Positions 497 to 62,022 are shown, counted from the first letter of the stretch. The stretch: 64,000 nt of DNA from an uncultured Candidatus Saccharibacteria bacterium (GCA_964644035.1 CAZXUH010000001.1:461720-525719), one strand, 5' to 3'. Notes: generated by a model from the sequence alone, not told the origin. A program made the numbers and translations.

Positions 497-528
497 AACC
501 CCAGAAGCCTAGACTTCTGGGGTTTTGA
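497..528. terminator. Bidirectional Rho-independent terminator hairpin (CCCCAGAAG-loop-CTTCTGGGG, then TTTT)
   Basis: Perfect 9-bp inverted repeat with T-runs on both strands, sitting between convergent transcripts. Confidence 0.5.
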
Positions 529-531
529 TGA

Positions 532-873
532 TCAAGTACGTGCAACCGGGGTGTAGTACCATTCCTTGAAGGATGAAATCGGGAAAAGAAGGTAGTAAAG
601 GATACCAACCCTTTTCCTGAGCTGAAGAAAATCACAAAGATTATGCCTCTCGCGGCGCCGAGTCAGAGCGACTTGGAGAGAGAGCTTGTTGACGACTTGC
701 TGGTGCAAACCAGCTTGCAGGGTCAACCTCGTGACGGTGTTGTGCAATGTCTCGATCTGAGCCTTGCACTCCTCGATACTCATTTTGTCTTGGAACGGTC
801 GGAGCATTTCTGCCACAACCGGATCTGACGCCTCTGCAATCCTTGGTTTCGACGCTCGAAAAGAACAATGCAT
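532..873 (-). CDS. Hypothetical small protein, GC-rich; start moved to the internal ATG that follows an AAGGAG SD
   Basis: ORF 532..930. AAGGAG lies 7 nt upstream of the ATG at 873. Local GC is clearly above the background. No recognisable domain. Confidence 0.3.
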   Translation of the reverse strand: MHCSFRASKPRIAEASDPVVAEMLRPFQDKMSIEECKAQIETLHNTVTRLTLQAGLHQQVVNKLSLQVALTRRRERHNLCDFLQLRKRVGILYYLLFPISSFKEWYYTPVART

Positions 874-11559: not shown

Positions 11560-11600
11560 AATCTGTGACGCAGAACCTTAACCCCTTTTGGAGGATAGTT

Positions 11601-12359
11601 ATGGGCAAGTACGATAGCAATATTGCACGACAGAACTTTGAAGCATTGAGCAAGAATCCTTATCCAGGCCGAGGCATCGTCGTTGGCGTGGATGAGACGG
11701 GAGAAAGTATGATTCAGATTTACTGGATCATGGGCAGGAGCGAGAACAGCCGAAACCGCATTTTCAGCGCCGACAAATCATTCCTGGGCCGGATCTTTAC
11801 GGAGCCCGTCGACGCGTCAAAAGTCACCGACCTGAGCCTCACCATTTACAATGCAATGGACGAGGCTCACGGTCAGTGCATTGTCAGCAACGGCAATCAG
11901 ACCGATACTGTCACTGAGCAGCTCAAGAGCCGGAAAACTCTCGGCCTCGCATATATGCTCAGGGAATGGAAATACGAGCCTGATTCACCCAACTTCACCC
12001 CGCGCATTACCGCCATCAGCTCTTTTGGGATCGATGGCAAGTCAGATCCGCAAGTCTCATTTCTCACACTTAAAAAATGTGCGAACAATGACAGCTGTCA
12101 ACAAATTGGTCAGATGCACTTCTCGATCCAAAAAGGCTTCGGCTTCTGTGTCACCACCTACACCGGTGATGGCAATCCCTTGCCTTCGTTCGACGGCAAT
12201 CCGCTGCTCATGCCACTGACTGGCAATTCTGAAGCGATTGCCCAGACGTACTGGCGTGCACTCAACGAAGAAAACCGTGTCTCGCTCGTCGTCAAGACAA
12301 TCCCCCGCTCAAGTCCGACGACGGTTCGGATCATCAATAAGTTCAGCAAAATCGCCTGA
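11601..12359 (+). CDS. IMP cyclohydrolase-like protein (PurO family, NTN-hydrolase fold)
   Basis: Matches to archaeal PurO as I recall it: GRGIVVG...RSENSRNR, IVSNGNQTDTV, FTPRITAI. Start moved to the ATG at 11601, which follows a strong GGAGGATAG SD. Confidence 0.55.
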   Translation: MGKYDSNIARQNFEALSKNPYPGRGIVVGVDETGESMIQIYWIMGRSENSRNRIFSADKSFLGRIFTEPVDASKVTDLSLTIYNAMDEAHGQCIVSNGNQTDTVTEQLKSRKTLGLAYMLREWKYEPDSPNFTPRITAISSFGIDGKSDPQVSFLTLKKCANNDSCQQIGQMHFSIQKGFGFCVTTYTGDGNPLPSFDGNPLLMPLTGNSEAIAQTYWRALNEENRVSLVVKTIPRSSPTTVRIINKFSKIA

Positions 12360-12373
12360 TACTTCACACCAAA

Positions 12374-12408
12374 ACCCCCGAGAAAATTCTCGGGGGTTTA
12401 TTATTTGT
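12374..12408. terminator. Bidirectional Rho-independent terminator (CCCCCGAG-loop-CTCGGGGG, then TTTATT)
   Basis: Perfect 8-bp GC stem flanked by T-runs, between convergent genes. Confidence 0.6.
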
Positions 12409-12456
12409 ATAAAAAAACTTCCGGACAATTCCGGAAGTCTTGAGATCGATAGAAAA

Positions 12457-12711
12457 CTAATACCCGCGTCTCGCAGGATGCGAACGCAATCTTCTATCGG
12501 GAAAGCCATGTTTTCTCTCTCGCGCAGCGTGATTCTCCCGTATTTCAACCGCTGCCTCAGCAATAGCTCGGATCTCATCCTCGTCACCGCGCACGAGAGC
12601 GCTGCGCAAGATACGCAGAACGTTCTGAGAGTTTTCTGTCGCACTATCGACTGTTTTTTGCTCGATCAGTGGGTCGAGAGCTTCCGCCAATTCAACTTTG
12701 TTCATAACCAA
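12457..12711 (-). CDS. Hypothetical small acidic/helical protein encoded on a GC-rich island
   Basis: 84 aa. AAAGGA SD 8 nt upstream of the ATG at 12711. Own terminator hairpin at 12412-12436. GC clearly above the flanks. Confidence 0.4.
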   Translation of the reverse strand: MVMNKVELAEALDPLIEQKTVDSATENSQNVLRILRSALVRGDEDEIRAIAEAAVEIRENHAARERKHGFPDRRLRSHPARRGY

Positions 12712-12798
12712 GTCCTTTCGTAGAGGGTTTATTGATCCGCTGCTAATATTACTCGGAAAGCAGCCTTGTGCAAGATGCAGATAAAAAATTAGATTGCA

Positions 12799-17933: not shown

Positions 17934-18530
17934 TCAATAGAGAGACGCCATCACTTCTTGGATCCATTGGAGCATTTCCTTGGTCTGGCATGGCTGTCCA
18001 ATGACGGCGTCGAAGTTGTTGGACTTCACCCATTCAGGTCCGAGTTCGGACGCGTTCTTGCTCATCGCAATGAGCTTCGTCATCAACGTAGCCGCATTGC
18101 TTTTCACGAAGACCTTGATCTCAGTCGCCTTCTCGACATGATCGACGTTGACGAAGATAACGTGCGGCTGGAATTCTTGAATGACGACCGAAGACATGAG
18201 TCCAAACTTCGTTGTCTGGACCACATACCCTTCCTCCTTCTCGATAAGAGCCTTGGGTATTTCGTAGACGTCAGGATCGACATCAATAATGAGCACCCGC
18301 ACCTGCGGTCCGACCAGAAAAATTCGAAGATCTCTGAGTGGTATCCCATGCTTCTGCATGAATGGAACCAAGTTCCTGACCTCGACCCGCCGATCCCGGC
18401 TACCCGGCAATCGATACCCTTTCAACAGGTCTTTATCGACCCATTTACTGACAGTTCGAGGTGCAACATTGCAGATTTTTGCAATCTGACCCGTGGTCAA
18501 CGTTTCATCCTTTGCTACCACAGAACCCAT
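17934..18530 (-). CDS. HTH_17 (excisionase/MerR-type helix-turn-helix) + CheY-like receiver-domain protein, GC-rich
   Basis: TTGQIAKICNVAPRTVSKWV is an excisionase-type HTH. The receiver-like region follows (VLIIDVDPD...IFVNVD...K). GC is well above the background. Start taken at MGSVV. Confidence 0.5.
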   Translation of the reverse strand: MGSVVAKDETLTTGQIAKICNVAPRTVSKWVDKDLLKGYRLPGSRDRRVEVRNLVPFMQKHGIPLRDLRIFLVGPQVRVLIIDVDPDVYEIPKALIEKEEGYVVQTTKFGLMSSVVIQEFQPHVIFVNVDHVEKATEIKVFVKSNAATLMTKLIAMSKNASELGPEWVKSNNFDAVIGQPCQTKEMLQWIQEVMASLY

Positions 18531-18623
18531 AACGTGCCTCCATTCGGTTAACAACGCGACTTTCGAGCCGCTCTTCTCGCCACACATTACAACACAAATT
18601 CGGGTTAGGCAATAATGGATCTA

Positions 18624-18678: not shown

Positions 18679-19131
18679 CTACTGCAGTGATTCGACGACA
18701 CTAAAGAAGTCAGGAAGTGCTTTCTTGAGCTCAGCACTTGGTGGCTCATCAAATATCTTCGCGATTTCCTCCGGAGTAAGAGGGCGTTGTGGTGCCTTGT
18801 TCCACGCAACAGTCTCTGCGCAAACAGAATCCAAGTATTTCAGCCCTTTTTGACGTAGTGGAGTGTTCACCTCGGATAATTTCTCAGCTAGAGTAGCAAA
18901 GAACTCCAGTGGAGTTTGTCCCTTTCCGCCAATGGTAAACTCTTTCAGTTTTGCGGCCGCTTCTGCTGAGAATTCACCCTTCGCAACTCCGAGGGGATCT
19001 GTTAGAAGTGTGAAAGAAACAAGACCTTTTGCTTCTTCACCCTTAAGCCACTCGACCATGTCCACAATACCCGGACAACCCACTTCCTTAAATATCTTTT
19101 TCAGATTTTCCGTATCAATCGTCTCTGCCAT
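18679..19131 (-). CDS. Hypothetical soluble protein, GC-rich
   Basis: 150 aa. AAAGGAG SD 7 nt upstream of the ATG at 19131. No recognisable motif. Confidence 0.4.
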   Translation of the reverse strand: MAETIDTENLKKIFKEVGCPGIVDMVEWLKGEEAKGLVSFTLLTDPLGVAKGEFSAEAAAKLKEFTIGGKGQTPLEFFATLAEKLSEVNTPLRQKGLKYLDSVCAETVAWNKAPQRPLTPEEIAKIFDEPPSAELKKALPDFFSVVESLQ

Positions 19132-23398: not shown

Positions 23399-23812
23399 TC
23401 AAATCTTCTGCAAGACCAACTCGTGTGACGGCAACAAGCAACACTTGTGCGGCGGGGTGATCTTGTCGATCAGCCGGTAAAAAAACAAAATTTCATTGTT
23501 CTGCGCAGTATGAGTAAGCTGACGTCCCACCCACTCCGCACAATCAACGACTGTTTTCAACCCCGCCTTCGGCGAATATGGTATCTGGTCCTGACACATC
23601 GTGACTAAGATCGGGAGCGGATCTTTGTACCTTTGGGGATGATTGTAGATATGGATCGCAAACCCTCCCTGCTCCGGATACATATAAGCTGGTATGCCAT
23701 GACTACGGACGATATTCAGAAATTCCTCCCATTGTTTCTCGGTAAATTCAGTTTTACCCCGCAGACTCTCGATGAATTTCAATTCATCGGCTTCAAGTGT
23801 GACAAATTTCAT
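23399..23812 (-). CDS. Hypothetical protein
   Basis: Start moved to the ATG at 23812, preceded by a GGAGGT SD. No recognisable domain. Confidence 0.4.
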   Translation of the reverse strand: MKFVTLEADELKFIESLRGKTEFTEKQWEEFLNIVRSHGIPAYMYPEQGGFAIHIYNHPQRYKDPLPILVTMCQDQIPYSPKAGLKTVVDCAEWVGRQLTHTAQNNEILFFYRLIDKITPPHKCCLLPSHELVLQKI

Positions 23813-23886
23813 ACTACCTCCGCAAAAAAACAAAGAAACTGTTCTCTAAAATTGTAGCCTAAAAAATTGAGCGATTCAATTGCTCT

Positions 23887-30740: not shown

Positions 30741-30796
30741 ACCTATCTCCTTTTGGTAAACGTCTACCGAGAATATAGCACAAAATCTCTTTGTTG

Positions 30797-30871
30797 CGCG
30801 GCCGACCGGACTTGAACCGGCAACCTCTCGCGTGACAGGCGAGTGCTCTAACCAAGTTGAGCTACGACCGC
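30797..30871 (-). tRNA. tRNA-Asp (anticodon GTC)
   Basis: Reverse-complement GCGGTCGTAGCTCAACTTGGTTAGAGCACTCGCCTGTCACGCGAG...CGGCCGCG forms a canonical cloverleaf. Confidence 0.85.
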
Positions 30872-31018
30872 AAATTATCGATGTGTAACTGAGAAATGAC
30901 TCTGTCACAGTCGAAGTGCTTAAAATCTAACAGATTTAATGCTTTTCCACAATAGGAAAAGGGGGTCGCGATTGCAACCCCCTTCATTGAACCATTCCCC
31001 TACAAACAGGCGGGATAC

Positions 31019-31312
31019 CTAGGAAGCGATTGAAAAGGCTTCCTCCAGTGTGGCAATTGCCATCTTTGCGCCATCGGTATCCATCTTGGGAACCGGTGAA
31101 CGAAATCTTCTGCACCGTTGACCCCGCGGTGCCGGCTGAATGCTTGACTCGAAAGTCTGCTGCTCGTAGACCTCCCGAGTGACATTTTGCCCAAACGATG
31201 TGAATCCGTTGGCATTGAGTATAGCATCGCCAACAAGCGCGCATGCTTTCTCGTTACCTGCCGGACGATCTCCGATGTGGCGTTCGCCACATACTATATT
31301 TGGTGACGACAT
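31019..31312 (-). CDS. Hypothetical small protein on a GC-rich island
   Basis: 97 aa. GGGAGGACGACT SD directly before the ATG at 31312. Terminator hairpin GGGGGTCGCGATTGCAACCCCC downstream. GC well above the flanks. Confidence 0.4.
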   Translation of the reverse strand: MSSPNIVCGERHIGDRPAGNEKACALVGDAILNANGFTSFGQNVTREVYEQQTFESSIQPAPRGQRCRRFRSPVPKMDTDGAKMAIATLEEAFSIAS

Positions 31313-31482
31313 AGTCGTCCTCCCGAAAAAACAGAAATGAGGGATGAAGAATACCGGCATCCATGGAGGTATTTACCTCAAATCCCTGCCCAAATATCAT
31401 CCTACTCCCATGAATAATCATGTCAAGATGATGTTTCAACCATTTTGCCTTTTGTATCTAAGCCCTGTATGCTCTCCAATAT

Positions 31483-37687: not shown

Positions 37688-39028
37688 TTACAGACATAGA
37701 GGGAAATTGTCCAAATCTTCAAATGTTTCTACTTCAAAAAAGTACCCTGGGGCTTCTGTGTCGGGATCGGTATTGTCGTATTTACCAGCTACACCTCTAT
37801 TGAGGAAGTCGCTGCAGTTTGCATATCCATCGCATAGCAATCCTCCAGTTCCAATACCAATAGTGTATACAGTAATACCCTGAGCTTTAGCATCATTGGC
37901 TTCTATGATTGCATCTTGAATAGCATCAGCTCTTCCTTCATCACCCGTGCGATATGTACCAGTCGTGCAATCATCTCCATTTGCATATTCACCATCCTTA
38001 CACAATTCATCTCGGTTTGAACCGTCGCTCAAAATAAGCATGAAGTCTGGATATGAAAGATCGTCGCGATCGTGTACTGGAACATCGGCACCTGTGGCTG
38101 TGAGATTGTAAGAACCGATATTGCCTGCTACCTGACCAGTAAGTTCATATCGTGCTACTCGAATACCTCCAGAAAGGTTGGTACCTCCATTTACATATCC
38201 AAGCTCATCGACGTGATTTTTAAGATCTTCTGAAGAGTCCTTTAGGTGGTCTTTAAGATAAATATGATCTTTGAACCAAATCATACCAATGTTGGTTCCT
38301 GGTGGTGACGGGTTGAGTTCGTCGATGAATCGTTTTGCTGAGGCTTTGAGCAAATCAAGCTCGCTAGGTGGAACTGATTCTTCATTTGGATCTTCTTCAC
38401 CACTGATACTTCCTGAAATATCCATCACAAGCATTGTATCGCCTCTGTTGCTGCAAAGATCTCGCGGAACTGGAGTGTACGTAAGCTTTACTGCTCTTTC
38501 GAGGCGACGAGGACCTGTGGTGTCTGTATTGCGACCGTACGAATCGATAGATGTTTCATTGGTCTCGACATTTTTTTCTACATATACATCACCATCGGGA
38601 GTACCAGGTGTATCTTCGAGAAGACTAAAAGAAACTTTGTATTTTTTGCATTCACCGACACTGTCTTGGCATGGAATACAATCGCCAGAAATATTCTCGC
38701 ATGCAGTTTTATCAGGTTCAGTCGATGTAACGTCTGTGACTGGTATTGCTTCATTGCCAAAACAGCTAATAGTTGCCTTGCCTGCACCGGGCAAGAAAGC
38801 ATTTCTATCGGTAGTAACCTGATCCCAGTATTTTACACACTCAAGACCAGAGTCGGCTGCATAAAATGCCACCTGTGATTCCCTTCCGACAGACGAAATA
38901 ATGAGGTGTTTTGAACTAAGACCAATGATAGAAAATGCCACTGCAAGCAAAAGACTCATCAGAAGGACACCGAAAAGAAGAGTGAATCCTTTATTTGAAT
39001 CTTTTTTCATATCTAAAAAGTATATCAT
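37688..39028 (-). CDS. Pilin-like protein with vWA (MIDAS) domain; putative pilus-tip adhesin (PilY1/TadG-like)
   Basis: N-terminus KGFTLLFGVLLMSLLLAVAF looks like a pseudopilin. MIDAS motif DISGSIS. First gene 5' of the minor-pilin set. Start could be 39028 or 39010; the track starts at a TTG at 39040. Confidence 0.6.
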   Translation of the reverse strand: MIYFLDMKKDSNKGFTLLFGVLLMSLLLAVAFSIIGLSSKHLIISSVGRESQVAFYAADSGLECVKYWDQVTTDRNAFLPGAGKATISCFGNEAIPVTDVTSTEPDKTACENISGDCIPCQDSVGECKKYKVSFSLLEDTPGTPDGDVYVEKNVETNETSIDSYGRNTDTTGPRRLERAVKLTYTPVPRDLCSNRGDTMLVMDISGSISGEEDPNEESVPPSELDLLKASAKRFIDELNPSPPGTNIGMIWFKDHIYLKDHLKDSSEDLKNHVDELGYVNGGTNLSGGIRVARYELTGQVAGNIGSYNLTATGADVPVHDRDDLSYPDFMLILSDGSNRDELCKDGEYANGDDCTTGTYRTGDEGRADAIQDAIIEANDAKAQGITVYTIGIGTGGLLCDGYANCSDFLNRGVAGKYDNTDPDTEAPGYFFEVETFEDLDNFPLCL

Positions 39029-39603
39029 CTTACTTCCCAATCAAAGAGCACTTCTCTAACGGTAAATGTCTTACCTCCAAAAGGTCCTGACGACCACGTA
39101 ACAGTTGCCACGACCTCGGCTTCAGTATCACTAACCAGTTTTATATTGATATGACGAGAATAGTTGGAGTTTGTACCCGTAACATGGTTGTAGCCGTTGG
39201 CACTATCGAGTTTTAGAGTGCAACTAGATCCTGAGCATGGAGTAATACCGACCGCAGAAATATCAGTCACTACGTCGACACTGCAATTTCTTGGTGTATT
39301 GTCCCCGACAGGCTGAATACATTCTACAGGTATGTTCAGGCACCCATCACTCTCATCGCCCCCAGTGAGCCATGGGCAGGTTGTCGTGGCAATATAGTTG
39401 GTATCGCGAATACTTCTGACTTGTTCGATCGCCTCTTCAGCCAAATAAAAGGCGCTGATCTGGTCTCGAGCATAAAACGACGACTGCAAACCCATTTGAG
39501 CAGCACTGAGCGTTGCTCCTATAGCGACTGTAATAATAAAGATCGCCACCAGTGTCTCGATGATTGTAAATCCTTTGGTATTTTTTGTTGAAAATAGTTT
39601 CAT
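39025..39603 (-). CDS. Type IV minor pilin / pseudopilin (prepilin N-terminal methylation domain)
   Basis: KGFTIIETLVAIFIITVAIG is a prepilin cleavage motif (G|FTxxE). Confidence 0.75.
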   Translation of the reverse strand: MKLFSTKNTKGFTIIETLVAIFIITVAIGATLSAAQMGLQSSFYARDQISAFYLAEEAIEQVRSIRDTNYIATTTCPWLTGGDESDGCLNIPVECIQPVGDNTPRNCSVDVVTDISAVGITPCSGSSCTLKLDSANGYNHVTGTNSNYSRHINIKLVSDTEAEVVATVTWSSGPFGGKTFTVREVLFDWEVR

Positions 39604-39604
39604 A

Positions 39605-40168
39605 TTAGCTTGCAGGATTTATTTGGCGCTTTGTCATGAGCGTTTGTATGAAAAATGACGATCTGTTGGTTGTCTTGGTCTGAGCATAGCCCTTGAGTCG
39701 TAGGAATACCTTGTCTTGAAATTCTCGAGGAGAGCCTGTGTCGACACTCAGTACAAACGCTGCATCCTCTATCTTCACTTCATCGGCTGTAAAAGGTTTA
39801 TAAATACCAGCAGCGAGCGTACTTCCCTTTTCCAAACGTCCTGTATGCGCCGATCCATCGGTTTCCATAAATCTATAAATATACTGCTCACCATCGGCGC
39901 CAATATCAGGGGTAAATTGTATAGCTAAACAATCATCATCAGTGCCATCGACACAAGAGAAATCAGTACCAACTCGTATCTCTCTGGCCATGGACTCAAG
40001 TGCAGTGTTGAGGTTGGTCATGACAGAGTTCAATGACTGAGACTTTTGATTGGCATCAATCACTGCCAAGATTGCGGCCGTGCCGGAGATAACGACAACT
40101 GCAAAAAGGGCCACGGAAACAAGAATCTCTATGAGGCTGAAACCGCTGTTTGATGAATTGTGTTTCAT
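39605..40168 (-). CDS. Type IV minor pilin / pseudopilin
   Basis: SGFSLIEILVSVALFAVV is a prepilin motif. Start taken at MKHNSS. Confidence 0.75.
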   Translation of the reverse strand: MKHNSSNSGFSLIEILVSVALFAVVVISGTAAILAVIDANQKSQSLNSVMTNLNTALESMAREIRVGTDFSCVDGTDDDCLAIQFTPDIGADGEQYIYRFMETDGSAHTGRLEKGSTLAAGIYKPFTADEVKIEDAAFVLSVDTGSPREFQDKVFLRLKGYAQTKTTNRSSFFIQTLMTKRQINPAS

Positions 40169-40189
40169 GCTATATGTATTTTCACACAC

Positions 40190-40831
40190 TTAGTTGCAAG
40201 TATCCACCACTTCGATCTGACCTGAGCTCAAAATATTGACCTGTTTTGTCTTAGCGGTCTGTGAAAGCAAACAGATAGTTGCTTGGTTGAAATGCGTGCC
40301 ATTGGCAATAATAATCGCATCTGGATTTGGCCGCATAAAGGTCACGCTCATAGCTGTAATAGAAGGAGATGTATCGTCAGAACACTCTATATCGGCAACA
40401 CCTGAGTCTGGTATGACGCAGAAATTTTGTATCGTATTGCCCGCGGGGAAACTAAAGGTGCGCATAATCGTATCGGATGAATCGTAGCCTTCTATACCTC
40501 CTGCCCCACCAACAATATTGTTGGTATCAGCGAAGAAACTGTAGCGAGCATTGTTTGAAGCAGATAGATAGATTCCATAAGGATTATTGAAAGAACCAAG
40601 ACCATCCACATCCTTGCTACCAAGACCATATGTCTGAGCTTCGCGTATTGAGAGAGCAACGTCGTCGGCCAAACCGGAGAGAATAATATTGTTTCCAAAC
40701 TTTCTTTGATTGGCGACGAGTACTGTCGTCAAAATAGAAAAGATAGCCATGACGATAAGGAGTTCGAGCAAGCTAAATCCAAAAGAGCTTTTTTTAAATA
40801 ACTTTAAAATATGTTTTGAAATATGTTTCAT
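40190..40831 (-). CDS. Type IV minor pilin / pseudopilin (GspH/FimT-like)
   Basis: FGFSLLELLIVMAIFSIL is a prepilin motif. Confidence 0.75.
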   Translation of the reverse strand: MKHISKHILKLFKKSSFGFSLLELLIVMAIFSILTTVLVANQRKFGNNIILSGLADDVALSIREAQTYGLGSKDVDGLGSFNNPYGIYLSASNNARYSFFADTNNIVGGAGGIEGYDSSDTIMRTFSFPAGNTIQNFCVIPDSGVADIECSDDTSPSITAMSVTFMRPNPDAIIIANGTHFNQATICLLSQTAKTKQVNILSSGQIEVVDTCN

Positions 40832-41595
40832 CGTGTGAAAGAAAATAGCATCAATATGTCTTCAATATGTATATTAGCAAAAAATACGAAGGCTGTACCT
40901 ATCACCAAAAACGGTGCAAACGGTATTTCACTTTTCATGTGCAGATTGCCAAGCCGGAAAACCATGACCAAAATACCAATAAGCGCCCCGATCCAAAATG
41001 CGAGCGTGATAGCTGCATAGCCCATATTCATTCCAAGCATCCAGCCCATGGCCAAGCCAAACTTAGCATCGCCAAATCCCATCCACTTCCCTTTTGAAAT
41101 GAGCCAGATAAACAGAAATGGAAATGCTACTGCCGGTCCAGCGACCAAAAGCGATATGGCTTCGCTTGGTATGCGGACAAAAAGCATATTCACAAACAGA
41201 CTGAGAAATGCAAAAGAAAATACCAAACCATCGGGAATAATTTTGTGCTTGAGATCATATACAAAAATCGCTACCAGCAATGACCATACGATTGCATAGT
41301 ATGGAGTACCGATAGTAAATCCAAAAATCTCATATATTCCGACAAAAAGAGCTCCAGTAGTAAACTCTACCAATGGATATTGCCATGATAATCGGCTATT
41401 GCAGCCCGTACAGCGGCCACCCTGAAAGAAGAAACTAAACAATGGTATAAGTTCGTACCAAGCGAGCGTTTTGCCGCAGGAGAGGCATTTTGAGCGGCCA
41501 GTGATTTTCCAACCTGTGTTGTATCTATAGATAACTACATTGAGAAAGCTGCCTATGCATAGACCGATCAGAAAAATAAAGAGTTCAACGATCAT
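40828..41595 (-). CDS. pilD: Prepilin peptidase (A24 family)
   Basis: N-terminal Cys box (CLSCGK...CTGC), polytopic, catalytic Asp region GFGDAKF. Length 255 aa. Confidence 0.85.
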   Translation of the reverse strand: MIVELFIFLIGLCIGSFLNVVIYRYNTGWKITGRSKCLSCGKTLAWYELIPLFSFFFQGGRCTGCNSRLSWQYPLVEFTTGALFVGIYEIFGFTIGTPYYAIVWSLLVAIFVYDLKHKIIPDGLVFSFAFLSLFVNMLFVRIPSEAISLLVAGPAVAFPFLFIWLISKGKWMGFGDAKFGLAMGWMLGMNMGYAAITLAFWIGALIGILVMVFRLGNLHMKSEIPFAPFLVIGTAFVFFANIHIEDILMLFSFTR

Positions 41596-41652
41596 GATGC
41601 AATAATAGTAGCATATATTTTAGTTGACCTACTGGATACCTCCTCCCCTAGC

Positions 41653-41739
41653 CCCTCCTCTAAAGAGGAGGGGAACACTAAAAGGTCTTGTGCTTCAGAG
41701 TCCTCCCTCCTCATTCTGAGGAGGGATTGAGGGAGGAGG
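41653..41739 (+). repeat. GA/CT-rich palindromic repeat element, copy 1
   Basis: 22-bp perfect palindrome CCCCTCCTCTAAAGAGGAGGGG plus a 65-nt tail containing a second inverted repeat CCTCCCTCCTCA...TGAGGAGGGATTGAGGGAGGAGG. Ends 4 nt before the pilin stop. Confidence 0.7.
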
Positions 41740-41743
41740 CATA

Positions 41744-42163
41744 TCACCTACTCACCTTAAAATTGTTTGCCGGAGTGCCGCTATTGCAACTATCTGATGT
41801 CGCTACGGAAGTACTATTTGCATTTTCAAGCGTCGTACCAAGACAATACGAAAGTCTGAGACCACTAGCATTGGTTGTCGGATTGTAGCTATATGCATCC
41901 CCTTGTGGTCCAACAGGCAATGTCGGCACAAAACCTTCTGTCACAAGCTGCATAAGATTAGCTGGATACTGCTTACTTTCACTGTCTGAGTTCTGAAACG
42001 ACGCTTCAAGTGCTATTTGAACCTGCTTAATATCATTGAGTCTTCTTGCATCACGTGCTCTCTGTCGAGCTTCATTGCCCCGAAACATTACTACACCAGA
42101 AAGAACACCGATAATAGCTACTGCAATAAGCAATTCAATAAGAGTAAATCCTTTTTTATTCAT
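41744..42163 (-). CDS. pilA: Type IV pilin (PilA-like)
   Basis: MNKKGFTLIELLIAVAIIGVLSGV is the canonical type IVa prepilin leader. Start moved to 42163 (GAAGGT SD). Confidence 0.85.
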   Translation of the reverse strand: MNKKGFTLIELLIAVAIIGVLSGVVMFRGNEARQRARDARRLNDIKQVQIALEASFQNSDSESKQYPANLMQLVTEGFVPTLPVGPQGDAYSYNPTTNASGLRLSYCLGTTLENANSTSVATSDSCNSGTPANNFKVSR

Positions 42164-42184
42164 ACATATATTGTACCTTCTACC

Positions 42185-42218
42185 TAGACAAAACAAAACA
42201 CCGCTTTTGGCGGTGTTT
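42185..42218 (-). terminator. Rho-independent terminator between the two pilin genes
   Basis: AACACCGC-loop-GCGGTGTT hairpin followed by TTTTGTTTTG on the minus strand. Confidence 0.55.
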
Positions 42219-42253
42219 TTATCTGCAATGAGTAGAGAAAATAGAAAAGCTCT

Positions 42254-42676
42254 CTAGCTACAAGATACTGCGGTACCTGAAGGATTAGCCGTTGTGGCAA
42301 CTGCATTACCCTTTGAGTCAACACACCAATATGATGCAGTATTACTCTTCAACTGGGCTGATAGTACCCAAGCACCAGCAACATCTTTACATACAGTCGC
42401 ACCTGATCCAGCCAACCTTGAGCCTGTGGCCATCTGGTCAATACCACCACCAGTTGAACTGTTATAACAAACGCCTAAGTAACTCTGGCTATTTGAATCA
42501 TAGTAGAGTTCAGCCTGTGCACGTGCATTGTTAACGTTAGACTTAATGGCTGCATCAGAACCCTTTGCGCGAGCAGAGTTGAGTGATGCAAGCACAACCG
42601 CTGATAGGATACCGATGATAGCGATGACCACCAAGAGTTCAATCAGGGTGAAACCTTTTCTAAAAGAAGTTTTCAT
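42254..42676 (-). CDS. pilA: Type IV pilin (PilA-like), second copy
   Basis: MKTSFRKGFTLIELLVVIAIIGILSAV. C-terminal Cys pair for the D-region disulfide. Confidence 0.85.
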   Translation of the reverse strand: MKTSFRKGFTLIELLVVIAIIGILSAVVLASLNSARAKGSDAAIKSNVNNARAQAELYYDSNSQSYLGVCYNSSTGGGIDQMATGSRLAGSGATVCKDVAGAWVLSAQLKSNTASYWCVDSKGNAVATTANPSGTAVSCS

Positions 42677-42832
42677 TTATAAATATATTATCTTATAACT
42701 ATTAAACATCGCGTCCCTACGTTTGGCCATTATCAGCGGCTAAATAAAGGCACGACTGCTTACACGTAATTATATACCGCCTATTGAAGGCGTAAATGGG
42801 TCGTGTGGATAACCAATCACCTTCTCCCCTTT

Positions 42833-42854
42833 CCCCTCCTCTAAAGAGGAGGGG
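42833..42854 (+). repeat. Palindromic repeat, copy 2 (palindrome only)
   Basis: Exact CCCCTCCTCTAAAGAGGAGGGG followed by AAC, as in copy 1. Confidence 0.7.
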
Positions 42855-42918
42855 AACTTTATGTTTTATTGAGGTTATTTTTAGTACTTCTGCATACAAC
42901 GAGAGTCATACTCCTTAC

Positions 42919-43341
42919 ATGAAGAAAATAATAAACAAAAATGAGCTGCTTTTACGCAGACGAGACCTAAGAAAATCAATGACTCACCAAGAGATACTTC
43001 TATGGGAGCATTTTAGACGCAAGCAAATGGGCTATCGCATCCATCGACAATACAGTATCGGATCATTTGTTGTGGATTTTTATTGCCCAAAAGCAAAGCT
43101 TATTATAGAAATCGATGGGTATCACCATAATAAACCAGAAGAAATAGAATACGATACTTTTCGAACAAAATTCTTTGAAGAACTTGGCCTCAATGTAATA
43201 CGTTTTACTAATCAACAAATTAATACCAATCTTGTAAAAGTTCTTACAGCGATTAAAGCTAAACTCCTCTCCTCCAAAGAGGAGAGAGCTTCTACACCTC
43301 CTCCCTCAATCCCTCCTCATCTTGAGGAGGGAGGACTCTGA
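42919..43341 (+). CDS. DUF559 endonuclease-domain protein (Vsr/restriction-endonuclease-like fold)
   Basis: SMTHQEILLWEHFRRKQMGYRIHRQYSIGSFVVDFYCPKAKLIIEIDGYHH...RTKFFEELGLNVIRFTNQQI matches the DUF559 consensus. The 3' end reads into repeat copy 3. Confidence 0.7.
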   Translation: MKKIINKNELLLRRRDLRKSMTHQEILLWEHFRRKQMGYRIHRQYSIGSFVVDFYCPKAKLIIEIDGYHHNKPEEIEYDTFRTKFFEELGLNVIRFTNQQINTNLVKVLTAIKAKLLSSKEERASTPPPSIPPHLEEGGL

Positions 43342-43383
43342 AGTACAGGACCTTTAGTGTTCCCCTCCTCTATAGAGGAGGGG
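43265..43383 (-). repeat. Palindromic repeat, copy 3 (inverted relative to copy 1) plus a degenerate extra palindrome
   Basis: Reverse-complement of 43297..43383 aligns almost base-for-base with copy 1. The palindrome variant is CCCCTCCTCTATAGAGGAGGGG. An extra CTCTCCTCCAAAGAGGAGAG sits at 43265-43289. Confidence 0.65.
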
Positions 43384-43421
43384 TCAGGGGAGGAGGTGTA
43401 AAAAGGAGGTGGCCAGGGTGG

Positions 43422-44630
43422 TTAAAACGCCGACGCAATATTGTAAATAGGCACCAAAACTGCCGCAAGGAGAATACCAACCCCGACACCCAAAAGCACA
43501 ATCATCACTGGTTCGATAAGACTGACCAGTGTATCTACAGCATTGAGCACTTCGCGCTGATAAAAGGTCGACATAGTCTTGAGAATCTTACCAAGCTCAC
43601 CAGTTTCTTCACCGACTTTGACCATTTGAATGAATATGCCTGGGAATTGTGGATATCTTGAGAATACGTCGGAAACCGATGCTCCAGCTTTGACTGCTTC
43701 GATACTATCGAGCAAGATTTTCTGATAGGTATAACTCTCAACAACTGTCGAAGTGATTTCGAGTGTGCGAAGCATTGGTATACCAGCCACGATCATCGTG
43801 TTCATGTTGTCGGCAATACGAGAAAGGAAAAGTTTTCTGTACAAATCACCGATAAAAGGTATTTTGAGTTTCATTTCATCGAACCATGCCTTGCCGGAAT
43901 CGCTTTTTATATATCGGAAGAAAAGAAAACCACAGATCACTAATGCGCCGAGCAAGAAGAATCCATAATTGACCAAAAATGCACTGGCCCCAAGGATAAT
44001 CTTGGTATAAATCGGTATTTCCTGACCAGAATCGGTCAAAATCGTGGCGATCTTAGGAATGACCATCGTGAACATCAGGATCATGACAGTAATGAACGTC
44101 GCGACGATAAATGCCGGATAAATAAAGGCATTGCGAGCCTTCGACGTCACTTCAAATGATCGGTCGAGATAGTCAGCAAGATAGACAAAGGTCTCATTGA
44201 GCTTACCTGATTCTTCACCAGCTCTCACCATGTTTACATAGAAAAGAGAAAATGTTTTTGGATGTTTACCCAAAGCTGCAGAGATAGAACTTCCACCCTG
44301 CAAGTCATCGGCTACGACCGTCAAAATAGTACGTAGTTGTGGCTGTTCTGTCTCAGCAGCCAAAAGTCTGAACACTCGAAGCGCTGAAACTTGCGATTCG
44401 AAAAGGATCGATATCTGACGAGAAAGAATAACGACATCTTTATTGCTAACACGAGAAAAGAAATTGAGATTTCTCTTAAGAATCGAGCCTTCTTCTTGGA
44501 GTGGCTTGATCGAGGTAAGTATCAATCCCCTTCTTTGAAGAGAATTGATGGCAATATCCATCGTGATCGCATCGATCGATCCTTCTTTTGATGTGCCGTC
44601 TGATTCGAGTGTCTTGTATCTAAAAATCAT
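43422..44630 (-). CDS. pilC: Type IV pilus platform protein PilC (GspF family)
   Basis: 402 aa. Two GspF repeats, three TM segments, typical PilC organisation. Confidence 0.85.
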   Translation of the reverse strand: MIFRYKTLESDGTSKEGSIDAITMDIAINSLQRRGLILTSIKPLQEEGSILKRNLNFFSRVSNKDVVILSRQISILFESQVSALRVFRLLAAETEQPQLRTILTVVADDLQGGSSISAALGKHPKTFSLFYVNMVRAGEESGKLNETFVYLADYLDRSFEVTSKARNAFIYPAFIVATFITVMILMFTMVIPKIATILTDSGQEIPIYTKIILGASAFLVNYGFFLLGALVICGFLFFRYIKSDSGKAWFDEMKLKIPFIGDLYRKLFLSRIADNMNTMIVAGIPMLRTLEITSTVVESYTYQKILLDSIEAVKAGASVSDVFSRYPQFPGIFIQMVKVGEETGELGKILKTMSTFYQREVLNAVDTLVSLIEPVMIVLLGVGVGILLAAVLVPIYNIASAF

Positions 44631-44638
44631 GATTTATT

Positions 44639-45703
44639 TTATGAAAGCATGCGCTCGAGAAGCTTAGGATTGACTGAACGATTGTATGCATTCTCGATAG
44701 AAATTTGTCCCTGACGTACAAGCTCGACCAAAGACCGGTTAAGATCGATCATTCCCTGCTGAGAACTTGTTTCGATCACGGTATTGATTTCATGCGTGCG
44801 CTTTTCGCGGATAAGATTGGCGACGGCACCGTTGTTGATAAGCAATTCATAGGCTGGCACAAGACCTCCTGATATACGAGGGATGAGACGCTGAGAAAAG
44901 ATACCAGTAAGGCTGGCTGCAAGCTGCACGCGGATCTGAGCCTGCTGCTCTGCAGGGAAAATGTCGATAATACGTTCGATAGTCTGAGCAGCATTGTTGG
45001 TATGAAGTGTAGAAAATACCAAATGTCCTGTTTCAGCAGCAGTAACAGCTGTTGCGATAGTTTCGAGACCGCGCATTTCACCGATAAGAATCACGTTGAC
45101 GTCTTGTCGGACAGCGTGGACAAGAGCAGTGTTGAAATCTTTTGTATCTATATTGACTTCACGTTGGTTGATAATAGATTTTTTAGGAGTGTAGACATAT
45201 TCCACTGGATCTTCAATGGTAATGATGTGTTCCATTCGATCTTGGTTGATAAGTTCGATAAGTGCAGCAAGTGTCGTCGACTTTCCCTGTCCGACTGGTC
45301 CTACCACAAGAAAGAAACCTTGTTTCTTGCGAGTAAAGATTTCGAGTGAAGGCGGAAGTCCGAGTTCTTCGAGTGTTCTGACATGATTTGGAATCGTTCT
45401 GAGTGCAAGACCAATCCTTCCCTGCGCTACATAGCCATTGCCGCGGAAACGTCCTGTGTCGCCATGAGAATATGCAAAATCTATTTCTTTATTGGCAATA
45501 AACTGCTGCTTGTACTCTGGCGACATGAGAGCATCGACAATACCAAGCATTTGATCTCTAGTGAGTGGTTGAAAATTGAGAAGTGGTACGAGATATCCCG
45601 ATACGCGAATAGAAGGCTGACGATGTTCTGCAAGATGCAGGTCAGAACCACCTTCCTTTATGACAATTTGAATGAGCGAATCGAGAAATTTTTTTGTATC
45701 CAT
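44639..45703 (-). CDS. pilT: Twitching-motility (retraction) ATPase PilT
   Basis: Walker A GPVGQGKST, Asp box, His box. Length 354 aa. AIRNLIRE-type motif near the C-terminus. Confidence 0.85.
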   Translation of the reverse strand: MDTKKFLDSLIQIVIKEGGSDLHLAEHRQPSIRVSGYLVPLLNFQPLTRDQMLGIVDALMSPEYKQQFIANKEIDFAYSHGDTGRFRGNGYVAQGRIGLALRTIPNHVRTLEELGLPPSLEIFTRKKQGFFLVVGPVGQGKSTTLAALIELINQDRMEHIITIEDPVEYVYTPKKSIINQREVNIDTKDFNTALVHAVRQDVNVILIGEMRGLETIATAVTAAETGHLVFSTLHTNNAAQTIERIIDIFPAEQQAQIRVQLAASLTGIFSQRLIPRISGGLVPAYELLINNGAVANLIREKRTHEINTVIETSSQQGMIDLNRSLVELVRQGQISIENAYNRSVNPKLLERMLS

Positions 45704-45733
45704 GCCAAATCTATTTAATGAACGTATTATATC

Positions 45734-46141
45734 CTACAAAGCCTCCGCAATATAGCGCTTGCCTGCCATTATTTCTCTCACTCTGGTTACTACTTCTGAA
45801 GGAATCGTCGTGGCCTTGATAATATAACCATCGACACCGATATCTTTTGCGATTTTTATATCTGGAGATTCAGATTGATTGGTAAGCATGACAATTTTTA
45901 CCTTTGGAAGAAGATTTTCAGTCTTGAGTTTCCTTACAAGTTCGATACCGTCCATGCCTGGCATAACAATATCAACAAGAAGTACATCTGGAGCGTAGCC
46001 GGCTTTTATTTTGTCATAGGCAAGCATTGCATTGTCCGCAGTCTCAATAGCAAATCCACTGTGGTCGAGCTTACGCGCATACATATTAAGTAGGAATTTA
46101 TCATCATCGACGAGCAGTACTTTTTTCTTATCTGCGTCCAT
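45734..46141 (-). CDS. Stand-alone CheY-like response-regulator receiver (PilH/PilG-like)
   Basis: KKVLLVDDDKFLLN...DVLLVDIVMPGMDGIEL...KIVMLT carries the phospho-acceptor Asp and a conserved Lys. Confidence 0.8.
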   Translation of the reverse strand: MDADKKKVLLVDDDKFLLNMYARKLDHSGFAIETADNAMLAYDKIKAGYAPDVLLVDIVMPGMDGIELVRKLKTENLLPKVKIVMLTNQSESPDIKIAKDIGVDGYIIKATTIPSEVVTRVREIMAGKRYIAEAL

Positions 46142-46209
46142 ATGGTTGTAGGTAGTTATAGTATATACCCCAGCTCATACTCATACAACACCGTCAAGAG
46201 GAGAACTGT

Positions 46210-47904
46210 TTATATCTTATCGATTTCTGAAAGGGCAAATTTACCTTCCAAGACCTTGAGCATGGCATCTTCTTGCATCGTGAGCATTCCCTGTTTTCTT
46301 GCGACCCTGACAATCTCATCTTCGGTCGGATTCTTGAGAATTGCATTCTCTAGTTCCCTATCTCGCTCAATAACCTCAAAAACTGCCATACGTCCCCGCG
46401 TACCTGTCGGACAATCAGACGAACTTCCAAGCTCATAGACGCTTGCCGGTATCTTAATATCTTTCCTGACTTCTTCGGCTACACCTTCGAAACGCTTTTC
46501 AATGCGCATTTTGACTGCACCTTCAACTTCTATCTTTGTACCTGCATTTGGACAAAGCACATTGCCAAGTCGCTGGGCAATAGCGAGCTGAAGGGTTGGA
46601 GCAATAAGAAATGGATCGACTCCCATATCGATAAGTCGGGGTATGACGCCCGCAGCATTGTTGGTGTGAATGGTCGAAAGCACAAGGTGGCCAGTAAGCG
46701 CCGCTTGAATAGCAAGCTGAGCAGTTTCTTTGTCTCGAATTTCACCCACCAAGATAACATCTGGGTCCTGACGAAGTGTCGTACGTAGACCTGTAGCAAA
46801 TGTATACCCAATTTCCGGCCAGACCTGAGACTGGCTGACGCCTTCAATATTGTATTCGATCGGATCTTCAAGAGAGAGCACATTCTTCTCTTCCCTATTG
46901 ATCTCATTGAGCATAGAGTACAGTGTTGTCGTCTTACCGGATCCAGTAGGACCTGAAATAAGCACCAAACCGTAGGGCTTATTGATACCTTCCCGAATAA
47001 TCTTGAGATTTTTCTCTGTCATACCTAGAGCCTCGAGAGGCTTAACGCCGCGTTCATGGTCAAGAATTCTCATCACCACCTTTTCACCAAAATATGTTGG
47101 GAAGGTAGAGACACGAAAGTCGATTTTCCTGCCCTCAATACGAGCCGAAAAGCGGCCGTCTTGTGGTTTGCGCTTTTCGTCGAGCTTCATATTGGAAAGA
47201 ATCTTAATACGAGCAACCACCGCCTGATGAACGTTGATCGGAAGCTGCAAACTTGTATTGAGTACACCATCCACTCGGAAACGCACGCGAATATGATCGC
47301 GAAGTGGCTCGACATGCACGTCGGATGCCAAACCTTCTGTCGCATAGCGCAAAATGGTAGCTACGATTTTGGTAATCGGTGCATCTTCTTTGATATCATC
47401 CTCGCTTTTTGCCTGCTCTTCATCGTGTTCCTGACTGACCACTATCCCCGCCTGCTGACGCAGTTCGCTATCAAGATCGGTAAGGGCTTTTGTTACTTCA
47501 CCTGAGAGACCTTTGTAGAGAGCGAGTACTTTGTGAAAATCTTCACGCGTAATAAGAAAAAGTTTGTATGGCAGATTGACCCTCGATGTAATGAAGTTGA
47601 GCGCATTGCGAGCTTCTATATTGTCGGGATCGACAATACCTACTTCAAGCGCACCTTCTTTGACCGAAATCGGTACAAATTCATAATGAAGAGCTGAGTC
47701 TTCGGGAATATAATCGAGCACGTCATACGCAATATCGTCGACATTGACGTTGCGCAGCGGCATATTGAGACGCTCGGCTTTTTGAGCAAGAGATTCTTTT
47801 TCTACTTGAGCCTGAATAGAAAGACCTCCTTCATCTTGGCCAGAAGCCCGCTTAACTTGAAGCGGTCGAGCGCCCTTCTTGTCTTGTGAATTGCTTGTAG
47901 GCAT
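46210..47904 (-). CDS. pilB: Type IV pilus assembly ATPase PilB (GspE family)
   Basis: Walker A GPTGSGKTT, tetracysteine motif CPNAG...C...C. Length 564 aa. Confidence 0.9.
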   Translation of the reverse strand: MPTSNSQDKKGARPLQVKRASGQDEGGLSIQAQVEKESLAQKAERLNMPLRNVNVDDIAYDVLDYIPEDSALHYEFVPISVKEGALEVGIVDPDNIEARNALNFITSRVNLPYKLFLITREDFHKVLALYKGLSGEVTKALTDLDSELRQQAGIVVSQEHDEEQAKSEDDIKEDAPITKIVATILRYATEGLASDVHVEPLRDHIRVRFRVDGVLNTSLQLPINVHQAVVARIKILSNMKLDEKRKPQDGRFSARIEGRKIDFRVSTFPTYFGEKVVMRILDHERGVKPLEALGMTEKNLKIIREGINKPYGLVLISGPTGSGKTTTLYSMLNEINREEKNVLSLEDPIEYNIEGVSQSQVWPEIGYTFATGLRTTLRQDPDVILVGEIRDKETAQLAIQAALTGHLVLSTIHTNNAAGVIPRLIDMGVDPFLIAPTLQLAIAQRLGNVLCPNAGTKIEVEGAVKMRIEKRFEGVAEEVRKDIKIPASVYELGSSSDCPTGTRGRMAVFEVIERDRELENAILKNPTEDEIVRVARKQGMLTMQEDAMLKVLEGKFALSEIDKI

Positions 47905-47909
47905 TTATA

Positions 47910-48245
47910 TTATCTCGCTTTTATAACTGGAGTTGATGGCGCTTTGCCAACAGGAGCAAATGGATTGGATCGGCCTGTCGGTCCTTCAACAAGAGTAATC
48001 GTCGAATCCTGCAGAGTGTTGTAGGCAGCATCGGCAAAAAGGACTGTACCAGCGTCGAGATTGAGTCCTTTGACGCGTTCAAGCTGAGCTTTGATCTCTA
48101 CCCCAGGGAAATTTACATTAAGATCTTCTTCAGTAAGACCAAGTTGATCATTGGTTACAAAATATTTTGTATATACAAAGATGGCACCTACAAGGAGAAC
48201 AATGATACCGACGACGATTGCGAGATTTTTAATAGTACTGTTCAT
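47910..48245 (-). CDS. Small single-TM protein in pilus operon (possible PilP-like component)
   Basis: 111 aa with an N-terminal TM. Located between pilO and pilB. Confidence 0.3.
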   Translation of the reverse strand: MNSTIKNLAIVVGIIVLLVGAIFVYTKYFVTNDQLGLTEEDLNVNFPGVEIKAQLERVKGLNLDAGTVLFADAAYNTLQDSTITLVEGPTGRSNPFAPVGKAPSTPVIKAR

Positions 48246-48246
48246 A

Positions 48247-48786
48247 TTATTTTGCCCAGTAGGTCTTAATAGTAAGGTTAAATGTATACAGCGAATCAGT
48301 ATCGTTTGGACTAAAGGTCAAACCAGTAACATCAGCGAGGCGAAGGTTTGATTCTAAATCCTTGAGGAAATCGGTAAATCTGTCATACGACGTTGCAATA
48401 CTGAAGCTAAGCGCAAAAGCATTGTCATTTTGCTTCTGAGGAGTCTTGGTTGTCGACTGCAAATCAGCAGTGTTGGTAATACGAATGCTTTTAACACCAG
48501 TCGAATACTTCTTGGCGATTTCATTGATCTCGATAACCAAACGTATCGTGTCGATATTCTGAGGGATCATGACATGAAGGCGATCAAGATCCTCTCCAGA
48601 GAAACTGTTTTTTATATTATTGAGCTTGGTGATCTCAACATCGAGTTCCCTCGCCTTTTCGAGAGCATCCTCATACTGAGCTTTGTCAGCCAAGAGTCTC
48701 TGTATGTTTGCATAGAGAGGTTTTGTATAAAAGAAACTACCGGCGATGGCGAGAACGATAAGTATGAGTGGTGCAAGTTGGCGCAT
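48247..48786 (-). CDS. pilO: Pilus assembly protein PilO
   Basis: N-terminal TM plus coiled-coil, 179 aa. Sits in pilM-N-O order. Confidence 0.6.
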   Translation of the reverse strand: MRQLAPLILIVLAIAGSFFYTKPLYANIQRLLADKAQYEDALEKARELDVEITKLNNIKNSFSGEDLDRLHVMIPQNIDTIRLVIEINEIAKKYSTGVKSIRITNTADLQSTTKTPQKQNDNAFALSFSIATSYDRFTDFLKDLESNLRLADVTGLTFSPNDTDSLYTFNLTIKTYWAK

Positions 48787-48790
48787 AAAA

Positions 48791-49456
48791 TTATCTTGTT
48801 GAAGTTGATGTGGTTGTCGTACTTGTCTCCTCGACCTCCGGTGTATCAGAACTTGTAACTTCTATTGCTGACTTCTCCCTTATCAAAGCCTTATACGAAA
48901 TAACAATCGGAGCGACACCTGTCTTCAAAGAAAATGAGACAGTATTGTCTGTTCCGAGCGAAACGTCAGAGAAAAGCGGTCCTACAAAACGCTTGTCGGC
49001 CAATACTTTGTCGGACTGGAGCGCTACGTCAGGGAAACCCTTAGCAAGACCAAACATTGAGAAGGATGGGCTTGTAAGATCATTGTTTTCGTATACAAAA
49101 TTCTTCCACTGCACATTTGGATGAGTTACATCTTCAAGCACTTCAAACAAATTTGATAACGCAAGGTGGCTATTGAGATGATTTGTGGCTACGGCAATTC
49201 TGTCGTTGAGTCTAATAAGTTCTTGGATATTGGGATCGGTAAGTTTTGCCTGATAGACGTCAAGTTCGTCTTTGAGCGCTTCATTACCCCTTACAAGAGT
49301 CTGTTTCCAGAGGAAAAGAAGTCCTGCCAAAACGGCGGCAACTACAAAAAATGCCACGCAAATAAGAGTGAAGATACTGACAGCTGTGCGCGAAGGGAGT
49401 GCTGCATCGGCGGCGCTTTTGCGGGGAATAAAAGACGATTGAAACTTTGGATCCAT
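48791..49456 (-). CDS. pilN: Pilus assembly protein PilN
   Basis: Single TM after a short cytoplasmic N-terminus, then coiled-coil. Immediately downstream of pilM. Confidence 0.6.
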   Translation of the reverse strand: MDPKFQSSFIPRKSAADAALPSRTAVSIFTLICVAFFVVAAVLAGLLFLWKQTLVRGNEALKDELDVYQAKLTDPNIQELIRLNDRIAVATNHLNSHLALSNLFEVLEDVTHPNVQWKNFVYENNDLTSPSFSMFGLAKGFPDVALQSDKVLADKRFVGPLFSDVSLGTDNTVSFSLKTGVAPIVISYKALIREKSAIEVTSSDTPEVEETSTTTTSTSTR

Positions 49457-61627: not shown

Positions 61628-61674
61628 GAAAAGAAAAAGCCGCAGATCAGTCATTGCGACTTTTCTGCGGCTTG
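61628..61674 (-). terminator. Rho-independent terminator (AAGCCGCAGA-loop-TCTGCGGCTT)
   Basis: 10-bp perfect inverted repeat followed by TTTTTCTTTT on the minus strand. Confidence 0.55.
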
Positions 61675-61697: not shown

Positions 61698-61955
61698 TCA
61701 GTTGCGGTGCTTGGCCTGCTCTCGCTTGCGCTCGATGACGGCACGGGCCATCTTCTGAAAATCGTTCATCTCGTCTGTCGGCATGGTTGCTATGATTCTG
61801 GCGGCGCGACCCAAGCTGGAGACCTTTTCCCGATCGGCAGTACCGGCTTCGAGATCGATTCCGGCCAGAGCCAGTGCCTTCGCTTGCTCGGGGTCCTTCT
61901 TCACTGCGTCACGGAAATGCTTCAGGACGTGAGGAGGCAAATTAACAGTGCCCAT
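61698..61955 (-). CDS. Hypothetical small helical protein on a GC-rich island
   Basis: 85 aa. AAGGAG SD 7 nt upstream of the ATG. Own terminator. Local GC is far above the flanks. Confidence 0.4.
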   Translation of the reverse strand: MGTVNLPPHVLKHFRDAVKKDPEQAKALALAGIDLEAGTADREKVSSLGRAARIIATMPTDEMNDFQKMARAVIERKREQAKHRN

Positions 61956-62022
61956 TGAATCTCCTTCTGTGAGTTTGTTATTGATCTTTTTTAATTATAG
62001 CACATTTAGTAGTTTTGTCAAC

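Follow-up and report, generated by a model that had tools for sequence, protein, structure and literature searches.

P1 to P4, four small GC-rich ORFs that all lie on the minus strand of the 64,000-nucleotide stretch of DNA analysed here (the window), probably represent four independent, unrelated and lineage-restricted orphan transcription units and not a gene family, a known RNA or a mobile module; we assign this reading a probability of roughly 0.6. The original prediction had grouped them as isolated single-gene patches whose GC content is far above that of their flanks. The ORFs themselves were found where they had been predicted, with ATG 12705 being a likelier start of P2 than TTG 12711, and a Shine-Dalgarno site of its own as well as a terminator hairpin with a T run could be located for each of them. 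As one class they do not hold together, as their products are unrelated in shuffle tests, their DNAs share nothing and no repeats flank them. The elements of the four islands are:

532..873, minus strand: P1, an open reading frame of 113 codons
879..884, minus strand: Shine-Dalgarno sequence AAGGAG of P1, 5 nt before the ATG at 873
497..524, minus strand: intrinsic terminator of P1, a hairpin with a 12-bp stem followed by the T run GTTTTT
12457..12705, minus strand: P2, an orphan protein of 82 aa, annotated by NCBI, with its ATG at 12705
12713-12718, minus strand: Shine-Dalgarno sequence AAAGGA of P2
12414..12441, minus strand: terminator of P2, a hairpin followed by the T run T7
12372-12399: second, bidirectional hairpin common to P2 and the convergent PurO gene
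11601..12359, plus strand: PurO-like IMP cyclohydrolase gene (Pfam PF07826, E = 9e-41), convergent with P2
31019..31312, minus strand: P3, an open reading frame of 97 codons, GC-rich and hairpin-rich
31319-31324, minus strand: Shine-Dalgarno sequence GGGAGG of P3
31399..31426, minus strand: promoter-like site upstream of P3 (TTGACA, 16-nt spacer, TAGGAT; 10/12 matches)
30961..30982, minus strand: terminator hairpin GGGGGUUGC-AAUC-GCGACCCCC followed by UUUU, between P3 and tRNA-Asp (30796-30871)
61698..61955, minus strand: P4, a basic orphan protein of 85 aa, annotated by NCBI
61961..61966, minus strand: Shine-Dalgarno sequence AAGGAG of P4, 5 nt before the ATG
61994..62021, minus strand: promoter of P4 (TTGACA, 16-nt spacer, TG-TATAAT; 12/12 matches, extended -10)
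61637..61673, minus strand: terminator of P4, a hairpin followed by a T run

The window carries bacterial signals (Shine-Dalgarno sites, intrinsic terminators, FtsH and CspA), and the nearest relatives of an HI0933-like gene flanking P1 and P2 are Candidatus Paceibacteria/Parcubacteria MAGs with at most 82% amino-acid identity. Because of these two observations we take the host to be a Patescibacteria (CPR) bacterium that appears Paceibacteria-like, judged by the relatives of its flanking genes. An archaeal host, at which PurO and a tRNA-Ile(TAT) had seemed to hint, was rejected for the same two reasons. Logan contigs from several runs, all of one strain, are 99.97-100% identical to the window, so its sequence is not an assembly artefact. 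Independent Logan contigs from different runs (loci L085 and L086) have a common end at 30825, inside tRNA-Asp and 194 nt past the P3 stop, where the assembly probably broke because other organisms have the same tRNA sequence. For comparison we used 160 loci from relatives, comprising genome contigs around the HI0933-like gene and metagenome contigs around ftsH. The gene order flanking the islands is not conserved across these loci, and since it varies, an insertion is indistinguishable from a rearrangement. The lack of homologues described below may partly reflect sparse sampling of the lineage, the nearest relatives having 82% identity near P1/P2 and 76% for full-length FtsH. The window further contains eight tRNA genes (Rfam, gathering score), scattered and single or paired; a tRNA-Ile at 58465-58539 (plus strand) whose anticodon, TAT, is uncommon among bacteria; a type IV pilus cluster at about 39025-50668 (minus strand) with five genes for N-terminal methylation motif proteins (pilins), T2SS-F, T2SS-E, PilO and a response regulator; and many further small genes without a Pfam match.

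The GC content of the window is 42.8%. Inserts of 55-60% GC had been proposed, a range reached by P4 (57.8%) and by none of P1, P2 and P3 (50.0, 51.8 and 52.7%). Compared with sliding windows of the same length, P1, P2, P3 and P4 have z-scores of 1.9, 2.1, 2.5 and 3.5, corresponding to percentiles of 96.4, 97.9, 99.2 and 99.95. Peaks of 0.52-0.57 in 250-bp windows also occur in PurO, ABC transporter genes, FtsH, a tRNA-Thr pair and tRNA-Ser, all among the thirty highest windows, with the top window, 61689-61938 in P4, reaching 0.592. For 51 long ORFs GC3 is 0.394 ± 0.066 and ranges from 0.291 to 0.638. GC3 values within that distribution, which would speak against the proposed islands, were obtained for P1 (0.57), P2 (0.49) and P3 (0.51), and only P4 (0.674) lies outside. 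Island 2 is not isolated either, as it adjoins a GC-rich ORF of 795 bp that holds the PurO gene (11565-12359; GC 0.513, GC3 0.638) and forms with PurO part of a GC-rich stretch of about 1.1 kb.

To decompose the GC excess, each protein was re-encoded according to the codon usage found in 26 bulk genes. About half of the excess derives from an amino-acid composition rich in Ala, Arg and Gly and about half from codon choice. Amino-acid composition contributes +0.04 to +0.055 in the four ORFs: Ala, Arg, Gly and Pro together make up 0.24-0.35 of the four products compared to 0.23 in the bulk genes, and Lys, Ile, Asn, Phe and Tyr 0.15-0.21 compared to 0.27, a composition that would be that of idealised helical proteins. 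Codon choice contributes +0.041 in P2, +0.050 in P3, +0.051 in P1 and +0.105 in P4, with the 26 bulk genes ranging from -0.044 to +0.021. In synonymous resampling this second component is positive in all four ORFs (z = 2.3-6.2, the highest value being that of P4), and a weak codon bias common to all of them may exist. At four-fold degenerate sites the GC content of the bulk genes is 0.38 with a per-gene SD of 0.058; P1-P3, with 38-53 such sites each, do not differ significantly from this (0.49-0.50), and P4 has 0.62 (z = 2.5). P4 is the sole clear compositional outlier among the four. P1-P3 would thus have been picked out of the upper tail of a broad GC distribution, their contrast being sharpened by AT-rich promoter and terminator flanks.

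We then compared the four products pairwise by Smith-Waterman alignment against 500 shuffles. Four of the six pairs gave z ≤ 0.8; P1/P2 reached z = 2.1 over 15 residues only, and P2/P4 reached z = 4.2 with residues 27-64 aligned to residues 8-44, an out-of-register alignment made up largely of Ala/Glu/Arg helices. A family shared by P1-P4 is ruled out by these tests. The predicted basic C-terminal motif [AV][IL]xR[RK]RE, seven residues long, is indeed present in P1 and P4, without any similarity of the whole proteins (z = -0.01). DNA similarity was found neither among the four islands nor between them and other parts of the window. The islands are flanked by neither direct nor inverted repeats, the flanking genes that were scanned include no integrase, and the window contains neither mobile-element hallmarks nor repeated copies of an island. 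The immediate neighbours differ as well, being GIY-YIG for P1, PurO/Maf for P2, aminotransferase/tRNA-Asp for P3 and HTH_26/cspA for P4.

Homologues were sought on several levels. None of the four products matched Pfam, NCBIfam, PHROGs (nothing below E = 0.05) or PADLOC, and Pfam searches of the alternative frames and strands of each island were negative, too. Tblastn of all four against phage records gave no significant match, P1 alone appearing at E = 0.8; P1 and P4 have no match in IMG/VR viral contigs and P4 has none in a plasmid search. Likewise, tblastn against the 160 loci from relatives yielded nothing significant, with P4 against locus L028 as the best match (E = 0.04, 49 aa). For P1 the homologue search comprised these tblastn runs on relatives' loci and phage records together with the viral contigs. 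P2, P3 and P4 were also compared with 5.8 billion protein clusters, giving self-matches only, and their 90%-identity clusters are singletons. When P4 was searched with HMMER against 1.84 billion cluster representatives (15 billion proteins) it retrieved itself and three large repeat proteins. The latter, an Ig-repeat protein, a TPR protein and a tandem-repeat protein without significant Pfam match, are mutually unrelated and their scores are summed over repeats, and we rejected them as chance matches. As judged by these searches, P2, P3 and P4 appear to be orphan, i.e. taxonomically restricted, with no homologue beyond their own strain. Anti-defence or addiction roles, which had been put forward for the islands, find no support in PADLOC, PHROGs, phage records or viral contigs, and the islands are single-gene units: P2, P3 and P4 each stand alone between a promoter-like site and a terminator, and no toxin or antitoxin domain was recognised by Pfam, NCBIfam or PADLOC.

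The coding potential was assessed by three-base periodicity, expressed as a chi-square that relates base to codon position. Stretches of 90 codons taken in frame from real genes have a median chi-square of 23.8, with 12.2 as the 5th percentile. P1 falls into two parts. Codons 1-78 are GC-rich and terminate in RRRERHN, and the remaining tail of 35 codons is AT-richer, aromatic and hydrophobic. The periodicity of the core (chi-square 13.6, p = 0.03) is at the low edge of real genes, P1 is called by neither the NCBI nor the Logan gene finder, and no promoter passing our rules was found upstream of it on the same strand. P1 is thus a doubtful gene with borderline coding status. As only 37 nt separate the stop of the GIY-YIG gene (911-1183) from its Shine-Dalgarno site, P1 is possibly co-transcribed with that gene.

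P2 is in the range of real genes (chi-square 16.9, p = 0.01), and in the AlphaFold prediction (pLDDT 75) three helices form a bundle from which a basic, disordered tail extends. Judged by its periodicity and this model, P2 appears to be a real small protein of that kind. The convergent PurO is an archaeal-type enzyme in a CPR genome, and its NCBIfam scores fall far short of the equivalog cut-offs. With a four-fold-site GC of 0.67 it would be a better candidate for horizontal transfer than the small ORFs.

For P4 the periodicity (chi-square 29.5, p = 5e-5) is likewise in the range of real genes. Its promoter is the only perfect sigma-70 consensus in the 64 kb (one observed compared to 0.02 expected) and is followed by a short, A-rich leader. 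To judge from these sequence signals P4 is a real gene, and one that is probably very strongly expressed. AlphaFold predicts its structure with a pLDDT of 83, comprising a strand (residues 3-5), helices 8-20 and 23-30, a second strand (39-41) and helices 42-57 and 60-83, and no structural match to this predicted fold was obtained. Of the helix-rich character that had been ascribed to the islands' products, AlphaFold thus supports the part that concerns P2 and P4 only. P4 could act via its basic C-terminal helix, which would bind nucleic acid or a partner protein, as suggested by its charge and the predicted helices.

P4 is located between a DUF2975/HTH_26 gene pair and cspA, upstream of ftsH. 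We compared this region with 80 metagenomic ftsH relatives with 67-76% identity over the full length, one partial match having 82%. In none of the 80 are cspA, a NUDIX-like gene, P4, HTH_26 or DUF2975 found nearby, and the gene on the far side of ftsH is conserved in 38 of them. P4 thus appears to lie in a lineage-specific variable block upstream of ftsH. An insertion of P4 alone is not demonstrable, because the whole flank differs in the relatives.

A fifth GC-rich patch, predicted to carry two genes, was found to do so:

17934..18587, minus strand: HTH_17 gene of 217 aa, excisionase/MerR-type at the N-terminus (Pfam HTH_17; BldC and excisionase matches)
18679..19131, minus strand: second gene of the patch, 150 aa, no family match, four-fold-site GC normal (0.36)

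Only the first of them is GC-atypical, with a four-fold-site GC of 0.65 compared to 0.36 and a GC3 of 0.624. The C-terminal domain of its product is unassigned, and there is a weak match to PADLOC mad1. Shifted four-fold sites were also observed in a gene for a hypothetical protein of 144 aa without Pfam match (23399-23833, minus strand; 0.63) and in the gene of the HTH_26 regulator adjoining P4 (62023-62226, minus strand; 0.65). The 19 nt that end tRNA-Ser(GCT) (52750-52841, minus strand), CGAATCTCGCCGTCTCCGC at 52750-52768, recur 153 nt downstream of the tRNA at 52578-52596. The segment between the two copies is GC-rich (0.568 in a 250-bp window) and contains no convincing ORF. This repeat resembles the att-type duplication that an integrated element, lost since then, would have left behind. 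Directly downstream of it lies an ORF of 49 aa (52391-52540, minus strand) that has GAAAGGAGG as a strong Shine-Dalgarno site. Its product is hydrophobic in the C-terminal segment and may be a small membrane protein.

Compositional contrast of this kind could have arisen if all patches had been acquired recently by horizontal transfer, from a host, phage or plasmid richer in GC, and had not yet ameliorated, an explanation also offered by the original prediction and one that we consider unlikely for the patches as a whole. It gains weight from the four-fold-site GC of P4, PurO, the HTH_17 gene, the 23399-23833 gene and HTH_26, which is 0.62-0.67 compared to 0.38 in the bulk, and from cspA, which is presumably highly expressed and stays at 0.33, so that the shift is not linked to expression. 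Moreover, the att-like 19-nt duplication brackets a GC-rich segment of 153 nt beside tRNA-Ser, and none of the genes is present in the sampled neighbourhoods of relatives. However, neither a donor nor a homologue emerged from 15 billion proteins, phage records, viral contigs or, for P4, plasmids, the islands have neither flanking repeats nor an integrase among the flanking genes scanned, and the flanks are not syntenic in the relatives, so that absence there is no proof of insertion. The direction of the shift is also at odds with an acquisition, since bacterial ORFans and recently acquired genes are, as Daubin and colleagues reportedly found in 2003, usually AT-richer than the host genome, whereas the genes studied here are GC-richer. 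At silent sites the shift of P1-P3 is within noise, and what remains of the proposal fits P4 only, based on its four-fold-site GC (0.62 compared to 0.38), its codon choice (z = 6.2) and the absence of its block in the 80 relatives, although no donor was found. Horizontal transfer of P4 is plausible on compositional grounds, and its silent sites would be those of DNA that was recently acquired or has recently arisen. It is also highly improbable that the GC excess of the islands reflects translational selection, i.e. that they are highly expressed small genes with a preference for C- or G-ending codons. The perfect consensus promoter and strong Shine-Dalgarno site of P4 would agree with such selection, as would cspA, in which the preference for C-ending codons is raised as well (0.81 compared to 0.31 in the bulk) and the codon-choice GC excess is +0.061. 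Yet the bias of cspA is towards C and T endings, with all four Glu codons being GAA, whereas P4 uses GCC, CTG, CGC and GAG. Among the type IV pilin genes, two, including the probable gene of the major pilin, reach a GC3 of only 0.36 and 0.30, and PurO and the HTH_17 gene are shifted without comparable expression signals. Because cspA and the two pilin genes lack it, the silent shift of the P4 type is not expression-linked and looks like the product of a different mutational background.

Non-coding RNA genes classically stand out as GC-rich patches from an AT-richer genome, and the islands might thus be structured RNA genes or structure-constrained mRNAs, their ORFs being by-products of stop-poor GC-rich sequence. 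For the four patches together this is very unlikely. Scanning of the intervals with Rfam 15, one of the checks suggested for them, assigned no ncRNA family: inside the islands nothing matched at the gathering score, at which only the eight tRNAs were found, or at E ≤ 10, where the only nearby matches were the terminator hairpins at 12366-12448 and 490-544. Folding z-scores against dinucleotide shuffles are -0.62 for P1 (terminator excluded), -1.83 for P2 (terminators included) and +0.54 for P4, whose transcript folds no better than shuffles, compared to -0.54, -2.20 (PurO) and -1.11 for coding controls, and the periodicity of P2 and P4 is gene-like. The suggestion of a structured RNA overlapping the ORF thus fails for P1, P2 and P4 and survives for island 3. 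There the minus strand without the terminator has z = -3.39, with one of 100 shuffles being as stable, and the ORF alone has z = -2.97. P3 lacks codon periodicity (chi-square 7.5, p = 0.28), being below the 5th percentile of real-gene segments and similar to shuffled sequence; island 3 has three open frames on a single strand, and P3 is called by Logan only, without NCBI annotation. Promoter-like and terminator-like sites are present, as are two perfect hairpins at the 5' end of the island, one of them around the putative ATG. In the sequence they appear as a pair of perfect palindromes where the P3 ORF begins, GACGAC-TAT-GTCGTC (31305-31319), which encloses the ATG, followed by ATGTGGCG-AA-CGCCACAT (31275-31292). 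Their role could be that of RNA hairpins or of operator sites. The folding signal is not strand-specific, though, as the opposite (plus) strand folds even better (z = -4.35). DNA homologous to island 3 was not found in 1.9 Mb of relatives' loci, and a search of these for tRNA-Asp upstream regions yielded one tRNA-Asp, located at a contig end. P3 is probably not translated, and it may be non-coding. A bolder combination, in which island 3 (about 30955-31392, minus strand) would be a new structured RNA of Paceibacteria, about 430 nt long and with its own promoter just upstream of tRNA-Asp, and P4, separately, a small nucleic-acid-binding protein that is very highly expressed and has arisen recently, either de novo or by very fast evolution, seems quite unlikely to us.

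Four unrelated, lineage-restricted orphan units are hence our preferred reading of the islands, and the likeness to known systems is limited. Like the small orphan genes of CPR bacteria, P1-P4 are short (82-113 codons), carry expression signals of their own and have no family and no homologue outside the strain, but orphan genes are usually AT-richer than their genome, whereas P1-P4 are GC-richer, P4 clearly so at silent sites. Horizontally transferred genomic islets resemble P4 in its atypical silent sites and in the block beside ftsH that is not conserved in relatives; unlike such islets, P1-P4 are single genes that lack an integrase, flanking repeats, att sites linked to a tRNA and identifiable donors. 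P4 shares with ribbon-helix-helix proteins (CopG/Arc/MetJ) a predicted strand-helix-helix arrangement in residues 3-30, a V-x-L-P-x-x-L sequence as in many N-termini of that family and its small size and basic character, and a match to the family was found neither by profile nor by structure. The best PDB sequence matches of P4 and P2 are de novo designed helical repeat proteins, and the resemblance of both to such designed or idealised helical bundles is one of composition and fold class, not of homology.

In summary, the finding is an ordinary one, namely heterogeneous orphan genes that are not part of a shared system, and it illustrates that judging GC contrast by eye lumps together small ORFs that are unrelated. 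Island 3 is a candidate for an unannotated RNA. P4, which combines the strongest promoter in the window with a confidently predicted helical fold and foreign-looking codons, would be a clean test case for the gain of small genes in CPR bacteria.
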